From contig JBDKRC010000208.1 in assembly GCA_039683575.1 (NCBI GenBank), positions 1 through 52,068 of the forward strand: DNA of 52,068 bases. Direction: 5' to 3'. This document shows positions 5,063 through 36,428 of the stretch, in pieces. The stretch is from Armatimonadia bacterium. Lineage in GTDB: Bacteria > Armatimonadota > Zipacnadia > Zipacnadales > UBA11051. The position numbers and the translations under genes are program-made. Under the pieces are notes generated by a model. The model did not search any database, had not been told where the DNA came from, and was given only the letters and a program-made list of their open reading frames with translations. Each line of letters opens with the position of its first letter. Positions within the stretch are counted from its first letter, which is position 1.

Positions 5063-5073
5063 CTGCATGTTTA

Positions 5074-5149
5074 CAGGAGCAGGCGGCCCTCACTGGGCGC
5101 AGCTGGGCCTTCACAAAGGCAGCGGGATCTCCAAAGACCCGTGGGACTG
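5074..5149 (+). promoter_or_regulatory. NiCo (czcD) riboswitch aptamer
   Basis: Ordered conserved elements GAGCAGGC...GCAGCTGGGC...GGCAGC...GTGGGAC of the NiCo four-way junction. It lies directly upstream of a CDF transporter, the canonical context. Confidence 0.88.
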
Positions 5150-5170
5150 ACAGTCCCACGGGTCTTTTTC
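5133..5170 (+). terminator. Riboswitch expression-platform terminator
   Basis: aaagacccgtgggactg (5133-5149) is the perfect inverted repeat of cagtcccacgggtcttt (5151-5167), followed by T-tract. It overlaps the 3' half of the aptamer, consistent with an ON switch. Confidence 0.85.
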
Positions 5171-31806: not shown

Positions 31807-32625
31807 CTACCGTTCGTTCTCGAGTGAGGTCAGGAAGTCTCGGAGCAGGTCGGTCACTGAGTCGGCCGCGGCTCGTTGCCTGCGTGGCGGGCACGGTGGC
31901 TCTATGAGAAGCTTGTCGGCCTTAACCGGCACAATGTCGCCCACCAGGCCAGCGATATGCTGTTGCAGCGTTTCGAAGGTCTCCTCGATGGAGCGAGAGG
32001 CGTCCACGGCGGTGAAGCCATACTCCTCGCCGAGCTGGTCGAACTGGTCGAGCATAGCGGTCTGGTGCTTGATGAAACAGTCATACAGGTCGCCGCGGAG
32101 GTAGTCGGCGCCGGATTCCCAGTAGTCAAAGCCACCGCTGGCGAGGACCCGGGGGATGAGGTCTCGTACGCTGATCTTGAGGTAGTAGATGGCAGAGGGG
32201 TTGACCGCAAAGCCGTAGACCTTGCGAATCCAGGTGGGACAGAGGCCGCGGACGATGGCGCGGCCGATAAGGGAGTAAACGTAGCGGTCGGTGAGAACGA
32301 CATAGCCAGCGCGCAGGGCGGGGACCATTTCGTTCTCGAGGCGGTCAGCGAAGTCGGTAGCATAGAAGAGGGCCTGGGTCATGCGACCCATGGTGTGTCC
32401 CTGCTGGGCTTCGCGGAGGTGTCGGCCAGCCAGGTTGGAGCGGGTGAGGCCGGTATCGTAGACGGCGAGGCCGGAGCTTTCCAGCCAGCGCTTGAGCAGG
32501 CGGATCTGGGTCGAGCGGCCGACGCCGTCAGTGCCCTCAAGGACGATCAGGCGGCCGGGATACTCCTCCTCGACGAGGCCAGGATACGGTTGCCAGTAGC
32601 TTTCGATGCGCATGGATCGCTCCAT
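31807..32625 (-). CDS. Thymidylate-kinase-like protein with variant P-loop (GTDGVGRST)
   Basis: LIVLEGTDGVGRST, DFADRLE..MVPALRAG.VVLTDRY. Start may be 32610. Confidence 0.85.
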   Translation of the reverse strand: MERSMRIESYWQPYPGLVEEEYPGRLIVLEGTDGVGRSTQIRLLKRWLESSGLAVYDTGLTRSNLAGRHLREAQQGHTMGRMTQALFYATDFADRLENEMVPALRAGYVVLTDRYVYSLIGRAIVRGLCPTWIRKVYGFAVNPSAIYYLKISVRDLIPRVLASGGFDYWESGADYLRGDLYDCFIKHQTAMLDQFDQLGEEYGFTAVDASRSIEETFETLQQHIAGLVGDIVPVKADKLLIEPPCPPRRQRAAADSVTDLLRDFLTSLENER

Positions 32626-32673: not shown

Positions 32674-33351
32674 CTATTCGCCGGCGGGTTTCCTGAGCAG
32701 GCCTTCGAGGTGGGGACGAACGATCTCTCTGACTTGCTCCTGCTGGTCTGGAATCGGCAGCGTGGCATCGATGACCTGCAGGGAGAACTCGCCAATCATG
32801 CTCTCGTATTGTTCCAGAATCTTGGCCTGGAAGATGCGGAAGGACTCGTACGGGTCGTCGCTCCAGCCCATGTCCTGGCCGGCTTCGTAGTACTTGAGTT
32901 CCGGTCGCCCGACCATGATGCGGTCCAGGGCCACCTCAAGGGGGACCCGGAAGTACAGCGCCACGGCAGGCTGGACGGAGAAGGAATAAAGCTCCCGAAC
33001 CCAGTCTGGATGGCAGCCGCGGGCGCCATCGCGGGCGAAGGCGGTGAAGGCATAGCGGTCGGCGAGCACCACTGCCCCCGCTTTGAGCGGCGGAATGATA
33101 TTGCGTTCAGTGCGGTCGGCAAAGTCAGTCGCGTGGACCAGGCTGAAGGTAAGTGGGGTAAGCAGGTGCCGCTGTTTTCCGCGCTTGGTAGCCCGTTTAA
33201 CGAGCTCGGAGGAGTTCCATTCGGAGAAGAAGGTGCTGTAGCCTTGTGCCTGCAGCCAGGTGTCGAGCAGGTGCATCTGGGTGCTCTTGCCAGAGCCGTC
33301 GATACCCTCAACGACGAAAAGCTTCCCCGGGAAGTCACTGCTGGGGCGCAT
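32674..33351 (-). CDS. tmk: Thymidylate kinase (dTMP kinase)-like protein
   Basis: VEGIDGSGKST P-loop, IIPPLKAGAVVLADRY. Confidence 0.8.
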   Translation of the reverse strand: MRPSSDFPGKLFVVEGIDGSGKSTQMHLLDTWLQAQGYSTFFSEWNSSELVKRATKRGKQRHLLTPLTFSLVHATDFADRTERNIIPPLKAGAVVLADRYAFTAFARDGARGCHPDWVRELYSFSVQPAVALYFRVPLEVALDRIMVGRPELKYYEAGQDMGWSDDPYESFRIFQAKILEQYESMIGEFSLQVIDATLPIPDQQEQVREIVRPHLEGLLRKPAGE

Positions 33352-33571: not shown

Positions 33572-34462
33572 ATGCCCGAGTTGTCCCTCAACGTCCGGCA
33601 CTATCATTTCGATTTTGCCGAAGGTACGCCCTGGCGTGAAGAGAACACGCGGGAGGTTGACAGCACTCGCAGGCTGAACCCCGCGGAGACCGCGCTGGTC
33701 CTGGTGGACTGCTGGGACCGCCACTACCTCAAGAGTTTTCTCGAACGCAGCGACAAGATCATCAGCGAATATATCGTTCCGGTGCGCGAGGCGTGCCATG
33801 AGGCGGGAATCACAGTGATTCACGCCCCGTCGCCGCCGCAGGCCAAGCGCTACCCCCAGTCGGTCCAGTATGCGGCGGATGACGACCTGTTCGGGCCGAG
33901 CCCGCACGGCCACCAGGCGGAATGGCCGCCGACAGCCTTCCGTCAGCGAACCGGCGAGTACCAGGAGTTCGCCAAGCCCCCGGGCGCCGTAGTACAGGCG
34001 TGGCGGGTCGTGGAGGCCGATCAGCGCAAGATAGCGCCGGAGCTCGAGCCGCGTGAGGGTGAATTCGTCATCGCCACAGGGCGGCAGCTACACCGTCTGT
34101 GCCGCCACCGCAAGATATTGCATCTGCTGTATGTGGGCTTCGCGGCGAACATGTGCATGCTCGCCCGCGACTATGGCATGAGGGCAATGCACCAGCGGGG
34201 GTACAACGTCGTGCTCCTGCGCGATTGCACCACGGGCATTGAGGCCCGGGACACCGTGCAGTCACAGGCACTAAGGCAGGCGGCGGTGCTCGAGGTGGAG
34301 ATGATGCTGGGCTTCACGACTACCTCGAGCGATGTCATCCAGGCAGTGCGCGAGTACGTGCAGGCGCCGCCAGCCGCCGCAGAAGGCGGGTCCGGCGGCG
34401 GGCGAGGGCTGACGATGCCGCGGCCGCTGGAGAGGCTGGCCTCACGGTTGGGCGCGAGGTAG
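33572..34462 (+). CDS. Isochorismatase-family cysteine hydrolase
   Basis: ETALVLVDCW, VIHAPS, GFAANMC, GYNVVLLRDCT. Start at ATG 33572 after AAGGTG; GTGACT-N17-TATACT promoter at 33501-33529. Confidence 0.85.
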   Translation: MPELSLNVRHYHFDFAEGTPWREENTREVDSTRRLNPAETALVLVDCWDRHYLKSFLERSDKIISEYIVPVREACHEAGITVIHAPSPPQAKRYPQSVQYAADDDLFGPSPHGHQAEWPPTAFRQRTGEYQEFAKPPGAVVQAWRVVEADQRKIAPELEPREGEFVIATGRQLHRLCRHRKILHLLYVGFAANMCMLARDYGMRAMHQRGYNVVLLRDCTTGIEARDTVQSQALRQAAVLEVEMMLGFTTTSSDVIQAVREYVQAPPAAAEGGSGGGRGLTMPRPLERLASRLGAR

Positions 34463-34495
34463 CCCAAAAAAGCTGCGATTTTTTCGCGTCGCCCC

Positions 34496-34524
34496 TTAAC
34501 AGCGGGGGCCTCTCCGTCTATAAT
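34496..34524 (+). promoter_or_regulatory. sigma70-type promoter of structured leader/ncRNA
   Basis: TTAACA (34496-34501), 17 nt, TATAAT (34519-34524); A/T tracts upstream resemble an UP element. Confidence 0.75.
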
Positions 34525-34530
34525 GCCGCT

Positions 34531-34857
34531 GAAGCACCTTTGCGGCGCGTCTGCGCCGCGAGAGTAATATGTGGGCCTTGACGGCCCCGAAGGTTAGTAA
34601 AGTGAAGTCTTCGGCCACGAACAGCACCAGGATTAGGATGAGCGTTACCAACCTCAACCTAGCCTTGTGTCTGCTCTCCGCCGGTCATTCCATTATGAAC
34701 CTTAGCCACGTACCGGTTATTAGCCATGTGGTTAACCTTCATAAGAATGCCTGCGCAGCGGTCGGAACTATCAGTGACGGATAAGCTTTAACGGAACTCC
34801 AGTAACTGACACGGCCGCGAGCAGGCGAAGAGCCAGCTAGCGGCCGTTTTATTTTTG
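34531..34857 (+). ncRNA. Unclassified large structured RNA or riboswitch-like leader
   Basis: Nested helices: 34551-556/34753-758; 34560-566/34672-678; 34587-595/34606-614; 34629-646/34650-665; 34686-709/34728-749; 34771-775/34805-809 with loop-E motif GAC/AGUA. About 50% GC (121/240 counted over 34561-34800). Confidence 0.7.
34811..34856 (+). terminator. Intrinsic terminator ending the leader RNA, upstream of the sigma gene
   Basis: acggccgc (34811-818)/gcggccgt (34840-847) plus inner agc/gct and ggc/gcc pairs, followed by tttattttt. Confidence 0.8.
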
Positions 34858-34893
34858 CATATAGCGCACCTGGCGTGCGCAGGGAGAGTTCCG

Positions 34894-35427
34894 ATGAGAC
34901 AGTTAGTGGAGGAAGCACAAAAAGGCTGTATGGCGGCGCGGACGCGGCTGGCGGCAGTGCTGCGCCCGCGCCTGATGACGATGGCACGCTACTATGCGCG
35001 CAAGACCTGGCTGGACTACGAAGACCTGTTGCAGGAGGCGTGGGTGGCGGTCTACGAGGCGCTGCCGGAGACGAAGCTCAATATCGGCGAGCCGGAGGAG
35101 TACCTGATGCGGCGGGCCCGCTGGGCAGTGTTGGACTACCTGAAGTGGTCACTGCGCCGCCAGATGGAGCCGCTGGAGGACTGGACGCCCGAACGGCAGG
35201 TGGCAGGGGCCGAGGGCGAGGTCGTGGCGCGGGCCACGGTGGAGCGCGTGGCAGAGGGGCTGTCGGAGATGCAGCAGAAGGTGCTGCGACTGCTCCTGGC
35301 GGGAGAGAGCTGCACGGACGCGGCCGAGACCCTGGGGTGTACGACCGCAAACGTCAGTTACCACCTTGGGCAGGTGCGGCGGCAGATGGAGGGCGTACTG
35401 GGCGAAATGGAGCCCGCTCTCGTCTAA
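34894..35427 (+). CDS. sigma-70 family (ECF/SigH-like) RNA polymerase sigma factor, no adjacent anti-sigma
   Basis: 'LV..AQ.G', 'DYEDLLQEAWVAVYEAL', 'A..AVLDYL', region 4 'LSEMQQKVLRLLLAGESCTDAAETLG.T..NVSYHL'. AGGGAG RBS before ATG 34894. Confidence 0.88.
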   Translation: MRQLVEEAQKGCMAARTRLAAVLRPRLMTMARYYARKTWLDYEDLLQEAWVAVYEALPETKLNIGEPEEYLMRRARWAVLDYLKWSLRRQMEPLEDWTPERQVAGAEGEVVARATVERVAEGLSEMQQKVLRLLLAGESCTDAAETLGCTTANVSYHLGQVRRQMEGVLGEMEPALV

Positions 35428-35480
35428 AGAATGGAACAGGGGAGTGGCCAAGCTCTCCCCCGCACCAATGAGGTGATACG

Positions 35481-36428
35481 ATGACCGGCTCCGGCACCAA
35501 TCCACTGAGGATCATCTCCGGCAGTTCCAACCGCCCTCTGGCGGATGAAGTCTGCGAACAGCTCGACGTGGCACTTACGCCCGTCGAGCTGTCTCGTTTC
35601 TCTAATGAGAACCTGGCGGTGCAGGTCCTCGATAGCGTGCGCGAGTGCGACGTCTTTGTGATACAGTCGCTCTATCCCGCTCCGAGCGAGAGCCTCATCG
35701 AGTTGATGCTGCTGCTTGACGCTTGTCGCAGTGCCTCCGCCGCCCGTGTCACCGCTGTCATCCCCCACTACTCCTACGCCCGTTCAGACAAGAAGGACAA
35801 GCCGCGTATCTCCATCGCGGCCCGGCTGATGGCCGACGTGTTGACCACAGCCGGCGCGAACCGCTTCCTGACGATGAACCTGCATTCCGAACAGGTGCGT
35901 GGGTTCTTCAGCGTCCCGACTGATCACCTGCTGGCGATGCCGGTGATCTGCGAGTATCTGCGGCAGGGAGACCTGTCGAACGCGACTGCGCTGTTTGATC
36001 TGGGGCAGGACAAGCGGGCAGGCAACTACGCCGAGGCGCTGGGCATTCCGCTGGCTGTGGTAGACAAGCGGCGCATCAGCGACACCGAGGTTGAGATCAG
36101 GGCCCTGATTGGGGAGGTCGAGGGGAAGGATGTCATCTTCTTTGATGACGAGATCAGCCGCGGGACGTCGCTGATTGCGACCCTGAACGCGATCAAGCAG
36201 ATGGGGGCGAGAAGCGTCCGCGCAGCGTGTACGCACGGGCTGTTTGCGGGTAACGCGATGGCCGAGATAGACCTTTCGGTACTGACAGAAGTCATCAGCA
36301 CCAATACCGTCAATGTGCCGCCCGAAAAGCGCATTCCCAAGCTGACGGTGCTGTCAGTGGCTCCACTCTTCGCGGCGGCGATCGCGAACACCCATGACGG
36401 GCGGTCGATCAGCACGCTGTTTACCTAG
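35481..36428 (+). CDS. prs: Ribose-phosphate pyrophosphokinase (PRPP synthetase)
   Basis: SGSSNRPLA, RFSNEN, SAARVTAVIPHYSYARSDKK, MNLHSEQVRGFF, DKRR, GEVEGKD, ACTHGLF. Confidence 0.93.
   Translation: MTGSGTNPLRIISGSSNRPLADEVCEQLDVALTPVELSRFSNENLAVQVLDSVRECDVFVIQSLYPAPSESLIELMLLLDACRSASAARVTAVIPHYSYARSDKKDKPRISIAARLMADVLTTAGANRFLTMNLHSEQVRGFFSVPTDHLLAMPVICEYLRQGDLSNATALFDLGQDKRAGNYAEALGIPLAVVDKRRISDTEVEIRALIGEVEGKDVIFFDDEISRGTSLIATLNAIKQMGARSVRAACTHGLFAGNAMAEIDLSVLTEVISTNTVNVPPEKRIPKLTVLSVAPLFAAAIANTHDGRSISTLFT

Follow-up and report, generated by a model that had tools for sequence, protein, structure and literature searches.

What does a bacterium gain from placing a folded, separately promoted and separately terminated tract directly in front of a sigma factor gene? 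The question is raised by a locus in a 52,068-nucleotide stretch of DNA from an Armatimonadia bacterium (hereafter, the window, meaning the whole stretch), where such a tract, at about positions 34,496 to 34,857, precedes a gene for a sigma factor of the extracytoplasmic function (ECF) type. The first-pass annotation had taken the tract for an orphan, non-coding structured RNA with a terminator/antiterminator switch. Our analysis suggests that it is the leader of the sigma gene and that it probably works as a ribosome-dependent (leader-peptide) transcription attenuator of the kind known from trp and whiB7. The parts of this leader, their conservation in related genomes and their alternative pairings were all observed in silico. 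The parts on which the argument turns are the following.

34495 to 34524, plus strand: promoter, with CTTAACA as the -35 box, a 17-nucleotide (nt) spacer and TATAAT as the -10 box.
34602 to 34784, plus strand: upstream open reading frame (uORF) of 60 codons, from a GTG start to the TAA at 34782-84; 71 codons if read from the ATG at 34569.
34749 to 34764, plus strand: region 2, the antiterminator strand (A), GCCTGC-gca-GCGGTCG, within the last 12 codons of the uORF.
34811 to 34856, plus strand: intrinsic terminator, -27 kcal/mol, with its 5' strand (region 3, T5) at 34811-26, its 3' strand (region 4, T3) at 34832-47 and a T-run at 34847-56.
34882 to 35427, plus strand: the regulated gene, encoding an ECF-type sigma-70 family factor of 177 amino acids (aa), with a Shine-Dalgarno (SD) sequence GGGAGAG at 34882-88 and an ATG at 34894.

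BLASTN with the element as query returned only the self-match in its own genome, with no second similar locus, and nothing convincing in 60 relatives except a 39-nt match to the terminator in a genome of the same genus (G002). The leader is thus too diverged for a DNA search, and homologues were therefore sought via the sigma gene. A homologue of the sigma factor at E<=1e-10 was present in 14 of 61 related genomes (G000 counted), and 14 of the 16 upstream regions inspected share one layout, in which a promoter resembling CTTAnCA-N17-TATAAT is followed by 250 to 450 nt, then by a terminator with a near-fixed stem and then by the sigma start; the sigmas behind the remaining two regions are only 31-32% identical. 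Of 67 genomes of the order, 11 contain the exact terminator pattern, solely at these sigma loci. In a public genome collection the same pattern was found in 99 stretches, 80 of which were analysed, and 10 of these 80 adjoin a sigma homologue, nine in metagenome-assembled genomes titled Armatimonadota (Armatimonadia, 'Ca. Zipacnadia') and one in an 'uncultured bacterium'; 69 of the 80, from other phyla, have no adjacent sigma homologue and were taken as chance inverted repeats. In one contig titled Armatimonadales (L127), the exact pattern stands with no sigma homologue in the surrounding 3.7 kb.

Scanning metagenomes with 13 aligned sigmas added 53 further loci, among them L189, whose sigma is 99% identical to that of the window and whose leader is visibly diverged. 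For the comparisons below, we used 30 non-redundant leaders, namely eight of type I (the window, L189, the G002-like group, L191 and G004) and 22 of type II, the larger subgroup, which comes from other families of the order. Near-duplicates (L050, L190, L196, L198, L199, L200, L204, L231, L141, L104) and truncated contigs (L193, L214, L240) were left out. Far from being an orphan, the leader module is conserved with its sigma gene across several Armatimonadota families.

The switch itself is visible in the window and recurs across this set. The terminator is a long interrupted hairpin, missed by a simple terminator scan, and it lies where the first-pass annotation had placed it. Strand A copies T3 and hence is able to pair with T5, in a duplex of -16.0 kcal/mol in the window. 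In the minimum free energy (MFE) structure of the nascent RNA (34531-34832), the antiterminator that had been proposed, GCGGTCG (34758-64) with CGGCCGC (34812-18), does form and is extended by a second helix of 34749-54 with 34821-26; in the MFE structure of the full-length RNA the terminator forms instead, and 34671-86 pairs with 34747-61. Across the 30 leaders, T5 pairs with A in 19 nascent folds, the window included, and T5 pairs with T3 in every full-length fold. The switch gating the sigma gene, proposed at first for a single sequence, is therefore conserved in the related leaders.

The alignment tells the same story in terms of substitutions. In the terminator helix (13 positions), 95.4% of cells in the 30 leaders are paired, and three pairs have changed on both sides. 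For the pairing of A with T5 (10 positions), the value is 81.3%, compared with 26-42% when the partner is slid by one to three columns, and its 7-bp core is nearly invariant. In the G002-like lineage, T5, T3 and A carry matching changes together, A-to-G, T-to-C and T-to-C, respectively. RNAalifold, applied to 18 type II leaders from A to T5, returned A:T5, a hairpin ending at the stop codon (hairpin H) and a small CCGY:RCGG helix that ties up the remainder of T5. In this consensus fold 93.8% of cells are paired (the slid controls for this value and for the 81.3% together span 26-45%), five pairs have changed on both sides (a count reached by 10 of 500 shuffles), and the covariation score is 0.183 against 0.101 +/- 0.012 in shuffles, with 0 of 500 reaching it, these shuffle controls being flattered by the derivation of the fold from the same sequences. 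Applied to the eight type I 3' modules, RNAalifold found the terminator and, beyond it, no more than a 3-bp stem; hairpin H is out of register between lineages.

The second conserved part of the leader is the uORF, and on this account the label 'non-coding' lacks support; the first-pass annotation had brought up a small ORF only among the outcomes that would refute it. An ORF of 30 to 116 codons whose stop lies 19 to 41 nt before the 5' strand of the terminator (28 nt in the window) is present in all 30 leaders, compared with 2.2 such ORFs expected in total from dinucleotide shuffles of each leader. The stop codon at this conserved place is interchangeable among leaders, being TGA, TAG or TAA. 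Strand A falls inside the last 6 to 12 codons, with its 3' end 16-18 nt from the stop in type I and mostly 24-29 nt in type II, a place at which a ribosome in the act of translating or terminating could mask it. When the start was picked blindly, as the site with the best anti-Shine-Dalgarno pairing in the whole leader, the same ORF was opened in 24 of 30 leaders, including 21 of the 22 of type II, where the SD pairing amounts to -10.6 to -15.9 kcal/mol (e.g. AAGGGGGTG or AAGGAGGTG). In the window, the GTG at 34602 is the most likely start, judging from an RTGAAG that is invariant in all eight type I leaders and from the lack of the ATG at 34569 in L189. The remaining features of the 5' part and of the body of the window's leader are these.

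34539 to 34587, plus strand: 5' untranslated region (UTR) with two hairpins in the MFE structure, 34539-48 with 34553-62 and GGGCC (34573-77) with GGCCC (34583-87).
34589 to 34604, plus strand: weak SD-like GAAGG (34589-93) and the conserved GTG start (34602-04); SD pairing about -4 to -5 kcal/mol.
34671 to 34761, plus strand: long hairpin 34686-34749 with its base extended, the predicted anti-antiterminator, in which 34671-86 (region 1) pairs with 34747-61 (region 2) in the full-length MFE structure.
34771 to 34809, plus strand: hairpin H, present in the MFE structure and containing the uORF stop codon; a hairpin of variable stem sequence occupies the same place in every type I and type II leader.

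Four of the G002-like leaders (L039, L192, L194, L195) also contain a G-rich, SD-like run about 40-60 nt after the -10 box, placed within the 3' arm of a hairpin with a CCUCCC-like 5' arm; the two arms change together among the four leaders. In L194 and L195 the short ORF that this run opens ends in a TGA, which directly adjoins the conserved GTG-AAG start in the former (0 nt) and stands 5 nt ahead of it in the latter.

If the frame is kept, the question arises whether its product matters. In the uORF frame, the mean GC content is 0.61, 0.55 and 0.69 at the first, second and third codon positions, respectively, and the third position is the highest in 22 of 30 leaders. The ratio of nonsynonymous to synonymous substitution rates (dN/dS) is 0.4-1.25 across 10 close pairs and mostly near 1, an 88-aa version included. 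The window and L189 differ at 21 sites (8, 6 and 7 at the first, second and third codon positions) without any indel, with a dN of 0.124 and a dS of 0.148; in four pairs of unequal length, the length differences are all multiples of three, two of them due to the chosen start. The uORF peptide has no match in Pfam or NCBIfam, so that neither purifying selection on the peptide nor a recognisable domain, as would mark a functional small protein or an anti-sigma peptide, was found. Retention of a frame without retention of its peptide is characteristic of a leader ORF that matters by being translated rather than through its product.

These results bear on the possibility that the ORF is an ordinary small-protein gene, for instance for a sigma partner or an anti-sigma peptide, which has its own terminator, with the sigma gene reached by incidental read-through or from a separate promoter. 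The SD and the conserved position of the ORF would fit such a gene, some versions are hydrophobic or long (88-116 aa), and the type II peptides share recurring residues near the C-terminus, namely Ser-Trp followed mostly by Val and Pro, some 10 positions short of the stop codon. These residues, however, are encoded by the very strands that pair in the RNA. TCG is the only Ser codon used there, and the residues give way to others (Ser-Arg, or the product of a shifted frame) in just those leaders whose terminator stem has changed. The absence of purifying selection in the 10 pairs, the variation of length between 30 and 116 codons, the lack of database matches and the short gap from T-run to sigma start in type II (20-39 nt) argue against a small-protein gene as well, and we regard it as very unlikely.

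The same residues admit another reading, in which the C-terminus of the uORF peptide acts as a metabolite- or stress-sensing arrest peptide similar to TnaC, and/or the RNA of about 320 nt or the peptide acts in trans. With a ribosome at the stop codon, the Ser-Trp-Val/Pro residues would sit in the exit tunnel and could keep the ribosome at the hairpin of the stop codon and in this way set the expression of sigma. Such an arrest peptide, or a leader acting in trans, may exist, but we consider both readings quite unlikely.

As for the dependence of sigma on the leader, the ATG of the sigma gene lies 37 nt past the T-run in the window, and this distance ranges from 20 to 39 nt among 23 type II leaders and from 37 to 71 nt among the 10 of type I that were listed. 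Such a short gap leaves little or no room for another promoter, so that the sigma gene probably has none of its own and depends on read-through.

An attenuator of the leader-peptide kind would also be expected to possess a strand that competes for A. In type II leaders, this region 1 runs from the 3' half of the SD through the spacer and the start codon into the first codons and is complementary to A and the adjacent arm of hairpin H. The 1:2 duplexes amount to -22 to -33 kcal/mol, are significant against shuffles (p<0.05) in 17 of 22 leaders and, by eye, show matching changes (TGCACC/GGTGCA in place of TGCGCC/GGCGCA). In the window, the predicted partner of A is instead the 5' flank of the long hairpin (34671-86 with 34747-61).

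Taken together, these parts translate into a four-region scheme with the alternative pairings 1:2, 2:3 and 3:4, in which the position of the ribosome on the uORF would select the pairing. We infer the translation of the uORF as well as the direction and the signal of the switch. Under this scheme, the strong promoter would start a transcript at about 34531 that carries the uORF from the GTG at 34602 to the TAA at 34784. If the antiterminator (34749-64 with 34812-26) formed while the polymerase was transcribing the terminator, transcription would read through into the sigma gene; without it, the far more stable terminator (34811-47 and the T-run) would form and a leader RNA of about 320 nt would be released. 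In a leader without a ribosome, 1:2 and 3:4 would form, leading to termination. A ribosome that reached the stop codon, 16-18 nt past A in type I, would likewise lead to termination; in type I it would then stand directly against A, much as in the trp leader. A ribosome delayed over region 1 or in the body of the ORF would allow 2:3 to form, leading to read-through. The sigma factor would thus be switched on by slowed or stalled translation, as is whiB7. We hold this direction of the switch with less confidence than the attenuator as such; because type II leaders have 24-29 nt between strand A and the stop and a region 1 that covers the ribosome-binding site, initiating ribosomes could also favour read-through.

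A riboswitch-like attenuator, in which a ligand, a protein or an RNA selects between terminator and antiterminator and the ORF is incidental or secondary, could use the same platform equally well. The strength of the folding invites this view: the plus strand of 34525-34857 has an MFE of -135 kcal/mol with a z-score of -5.09, and none of 100 shuffles is as stable, in agreement with the first impression of a strongly paired tract. The minus strand is likewise stable (z -4.54), so that stability alone does not assign the strand, which is given by the promoter, the T-run and the homologues. The hairpins in the body of the ORF and hairpin H are, moreover, kept while their sequence changes, and the SD is weak in the subgroup to which the window belongs. 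Nevertheless, nothing is conserved between the subgroups outside the expression platform, the 5' UTR and the ORF body being unalignable and containing no aptamer-like core; the riboswitch or RNA anti-sigma suggested originally is not supported. At the gathering score, Rfam gave no match in 34400-34950 (riboswitches, T-box, tmRNA, RNase P, SRP, 6S and leaders included), consistent with the original failure to recognise a known family, and at E<=10 nothing matched the element except a chance snoRNA (E 8.6). Finally, a riboswitch would leave unexplained the conserved strong SD and start and the fixed stop position with interchangeable stop codons. We consider it unlikely.

Several observations weigh against a ribosome-dependent attenuator. 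Covariation among homologues, which the first-pass annotation had treated as a touchstone, is found in the terminator and in the type II consensus fold, with three and five pairs changed on both sides, and is thin in the A:T5 core, where it comes down to one lineage event, the rest being invariant. The alternative fold, computed with the 3' strand blocked, is 10-26 kcal/mol less stable than the terminator fold, which confines any action of the antiterminator to the kinetics of ongoing transcription, as with classical attenuators. The ORF starts behind the count of 30 in 30 leaders were partly chosen with the stop position known, and the leaders are phylogenetically related, so that all such counts overstate independence. 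The blind SD pick succeeded in only three of eight type I leaders, in which the SD is weak (about -4 to -5 kcal/mol), and the weak GAAGG is where the argument for the window itself is most vulnerable. For the window, moreover, the test of 1:2 pairing by the initiation region gave z -1.0 and p 0.18. On the pairwise data alone, a dN/dS of about 1 and the even spread of differences over codon positions fit an open non-coding frame too. In the pooled uORF composition, no amino acid is enriched, and no regulatory codons name a signal; such codons define the amino-acid operon subclass and are not required of general translation sensors of the whiB7 type.

The data from RNA libraries have to be read with similar caution. 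Contigs of at least 99% identity from one metatranscriptome study (two samples) cover 34559-34724, 34614-34778 and 34619-34778, along with parts of sigma and prs, and a contig from a relative (90-95% identity) spans 34799-35438. Among the contigs examined, none from the organism itself covers 34779-34878 and none bridges the terminator, a limit on the support that the leader pieces lend to the attenuator. Such contigs carry no ends, strand or levels, and carry-over of DNA could account for them; they place the stretch in RNA libraries, nothing more, and neither support nor oppose termination.

The presence of leader pieces in RNA libraries, together with a promoter and a terminator that would release a defined RNA of about 320 nt, also agrees with a discrete trans-acting RNA, with or without a trans-acting peptide, whose place before the sigma gene would reflect shared regulation and not control in cis. 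Passages in the literature put a terminated attenuator RNA that acts in trans on record for the rhizobial trp leader. The element has, however, a single genomic copy and no similar locus elsewhere, and it always lies directly upstream of sigma, with little or no room for another promoter. Nor did complementarity to a target come to light, although no search aimed at it was made. We find a purely trans-acting RNA highly improbable; a role in trans could, however, coexist with attenuation in cis.

Other properties of the locus concern its promoter and its composition. The motif TTAACA-N17-TATAAT at 34496-34524, already pointed out in the first-pass annotation, matches 11 of 12 consensus positions and is the sole promoter-like site in 34000-35600 (0.3 expected), and the pattern CTTANCA-N17-TATAAT occurs once in the 6.2-Mb genome assembly; a similar box precedes the homologous leaders. 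The GC content, also described correctly as lower than in the flanking genes, is 0.50-0.565 over 34500-34799 compared with 0.62-0.70 in the flanks. A pairing of 34525-31 with 34756-62 in the plus-strand fold was dropped because these bases lie upstream of the start of transcription that we infer at about 34531.

The fine structure described earlier fared unevenly. The 64-nt hairpin (34686-34749) and the further hairpin (34771-34809) are both present in the MFE structure, and in the other type I leaders a hairpin of unlike sequence takes the place of the former. The first hairpin of the 5' UTR retains its pairing in L189 with a changed sequence (GGTGC/GCACC). The helices CTGCGC/GCGCAG and GAGAGTA/TGCTCTC, the first of which was thought to enclose the structure, are both absent from the MFE structure and have uncompensated mismatches in L189, the closest relative. 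The loop-E motif is confined to the window and L189, as the hairpins of other type I leaders differ there in stem and register. Three copies of AGUA are no more than chance would give (161 of 1000 shuffles reach the count). The recurrence of AACCU stands as a count, with four copies in 34650-34738 (0 of 1000 shuffles), and fails as a conserved feature, only two of the four being kept in L189. UAGCC is present in three copies (26 of 1000 shuffles), and the copies of both motifs fall mostly within the arms of the two ORF-body hairpins.

In type II leaders, a conserved CCUCCCG lies 8-22 nt past the uORF stop, forms the 3' arm of a hairpin directly after it and is complementary to the SD of the sigma gene (CGGGAGG); the flanks also match in one sub-clade (L065, L213, L220, L217, L232 and L238). 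Going by this complementarity, CCUCCCG could serve as a translational lock on sigma. As a candidate for the masking of translation, the pairing was set aside, with only 5 of 30 leaders at p<0.05 against shuffles and a median z of -0.4.

More distant relatives of the sigma factor within the phylum, 36-45% identical (L168-L188), were also inspected. In 11 of these 21 upstream regions, there is a strong SD (GAAAGGAGG-like, at or below -10 kcal/mol) with an ORF. The ORFs have 20-51 codons and lie 84-312 nt before sigma, several share a Pro-Arg-Phe-Gly stretch, and only some of the regions have a clear terminator. The leader ORF may be older than the order.

The sigma factor itself contains Pfam Sigma70_r2 and a region 4/GerE domain and matches TIGR02937. 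At one related locus, L045 (G024:C36), there is one in-frame TGA within the match to the sigma query, near the C-terminal end, which may be the true stop of a shorter protein. In the window, prs (ribose-phosphate pyrophosphokinase; 35481-36428, plus strand) follows 53 nt after sigma, but the sigma-prs link implied in the earlier proposal is specific to this genome, as the downstream ORFs vary from locus to locus in 16 other sigma loci; not being conserved, the downstream genes are unusable as a clue to the regulon. Elsewhere in the window, two adjacent genes on the minus strand, 31807-32625 and 32674-33351, both fall into the thymidylate kinase family of Pfam (E 2.5e-17 and 7.9e-20, respectively). 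A NiCo (nickel/cobalt) riboswitch aptamer, RF02683, at 5065-5150 (plus strand; score 41.7 bits, gathering score 37, E 4e-06) is the only match to Rfam at the gathering score in the whole window.

Attenuators of this general kind are known from several systems. The leader ORFs of the trp, leu and his operons have 14-30 codons. The uORF described here, with 60 codons, differs from those of amino-acid operon attenuators also in having no run of regulatory codons and in that a sigma factor gene, not a biosynthetic operon, lies downstream. Common to both are the pairings 2:3 and 3:4, a 1:2 pairing that is a prediction in the window, the location of region 2 at the end of the leader ORF and a stop codon so placed that a terminating ribosome would abut region 2 (for the operon leaders, see PMC10274678). 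According to the same source, efficient translation of the whiB7 uORF leads to termination and translation stress to read-through, and the length and sequence of this uORF vary between species (PMC10274678). The sigma leader resembles that of whiB7/wblC in Actinobacteria in its distal promoter, its variable uORF, its Rho-independent terminator with a competing antiterminator and its control of a transcription regulator. It differs in its phylum, Armatimonadota, in the lack of sequence similarity, in regulating an ECF-type sigma instead of a WhiB-like protein, in having no enrichment of alanine or any other amino acid and, in type II, in the overlap of region 1 with the stretch from the SD to the start of the uORF. 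A response of the sigma leader to translation stress resembling that of whiB7 is proposed by analogy only. A parallel in the history of its interpretation is the ilvB-II motif of Corynebacterium, a candidate structured non-coding RNA (ncRNA) re-read as a uORF/leader-peptide attenuator (PMC10272879); in its uORF, branched-chain amino acids are over-represented, in correspondence with the operon under its control. The sigma leader has followed the same path from structured ncRNA candidate to uORF attenuator, but it shows no such match between amino acids and operon. The class of mechanism is a textbook one and not a new principle; open-access papers and preprints, searched in their main texts, yielded no earlier account of such a uORF attenuator in front of a sigma gene, nor of one in Armatimonadetes.

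As a rule, anti-sigma proteins regulate ECF-type sigma factors. The factor studied here seems to be controlled by conditional termination that depends on the translation of a leader ORF. If an arrest peptide or a trans-acting leader were involved, this would be a new kind of sensor for a sigma factor without an anti-sigma. If the attenuator is confirmed, it would be one more 'structured ncRNA candidate' that is a uORF attenuator, and Armatimonadota, a phylum with almost no experimental genetics, would have a translation-stress sensor similar to that of whiB7, at a great phylogenetic distance from it, and with it a handle on when the regulon of this sigma factor turns on.

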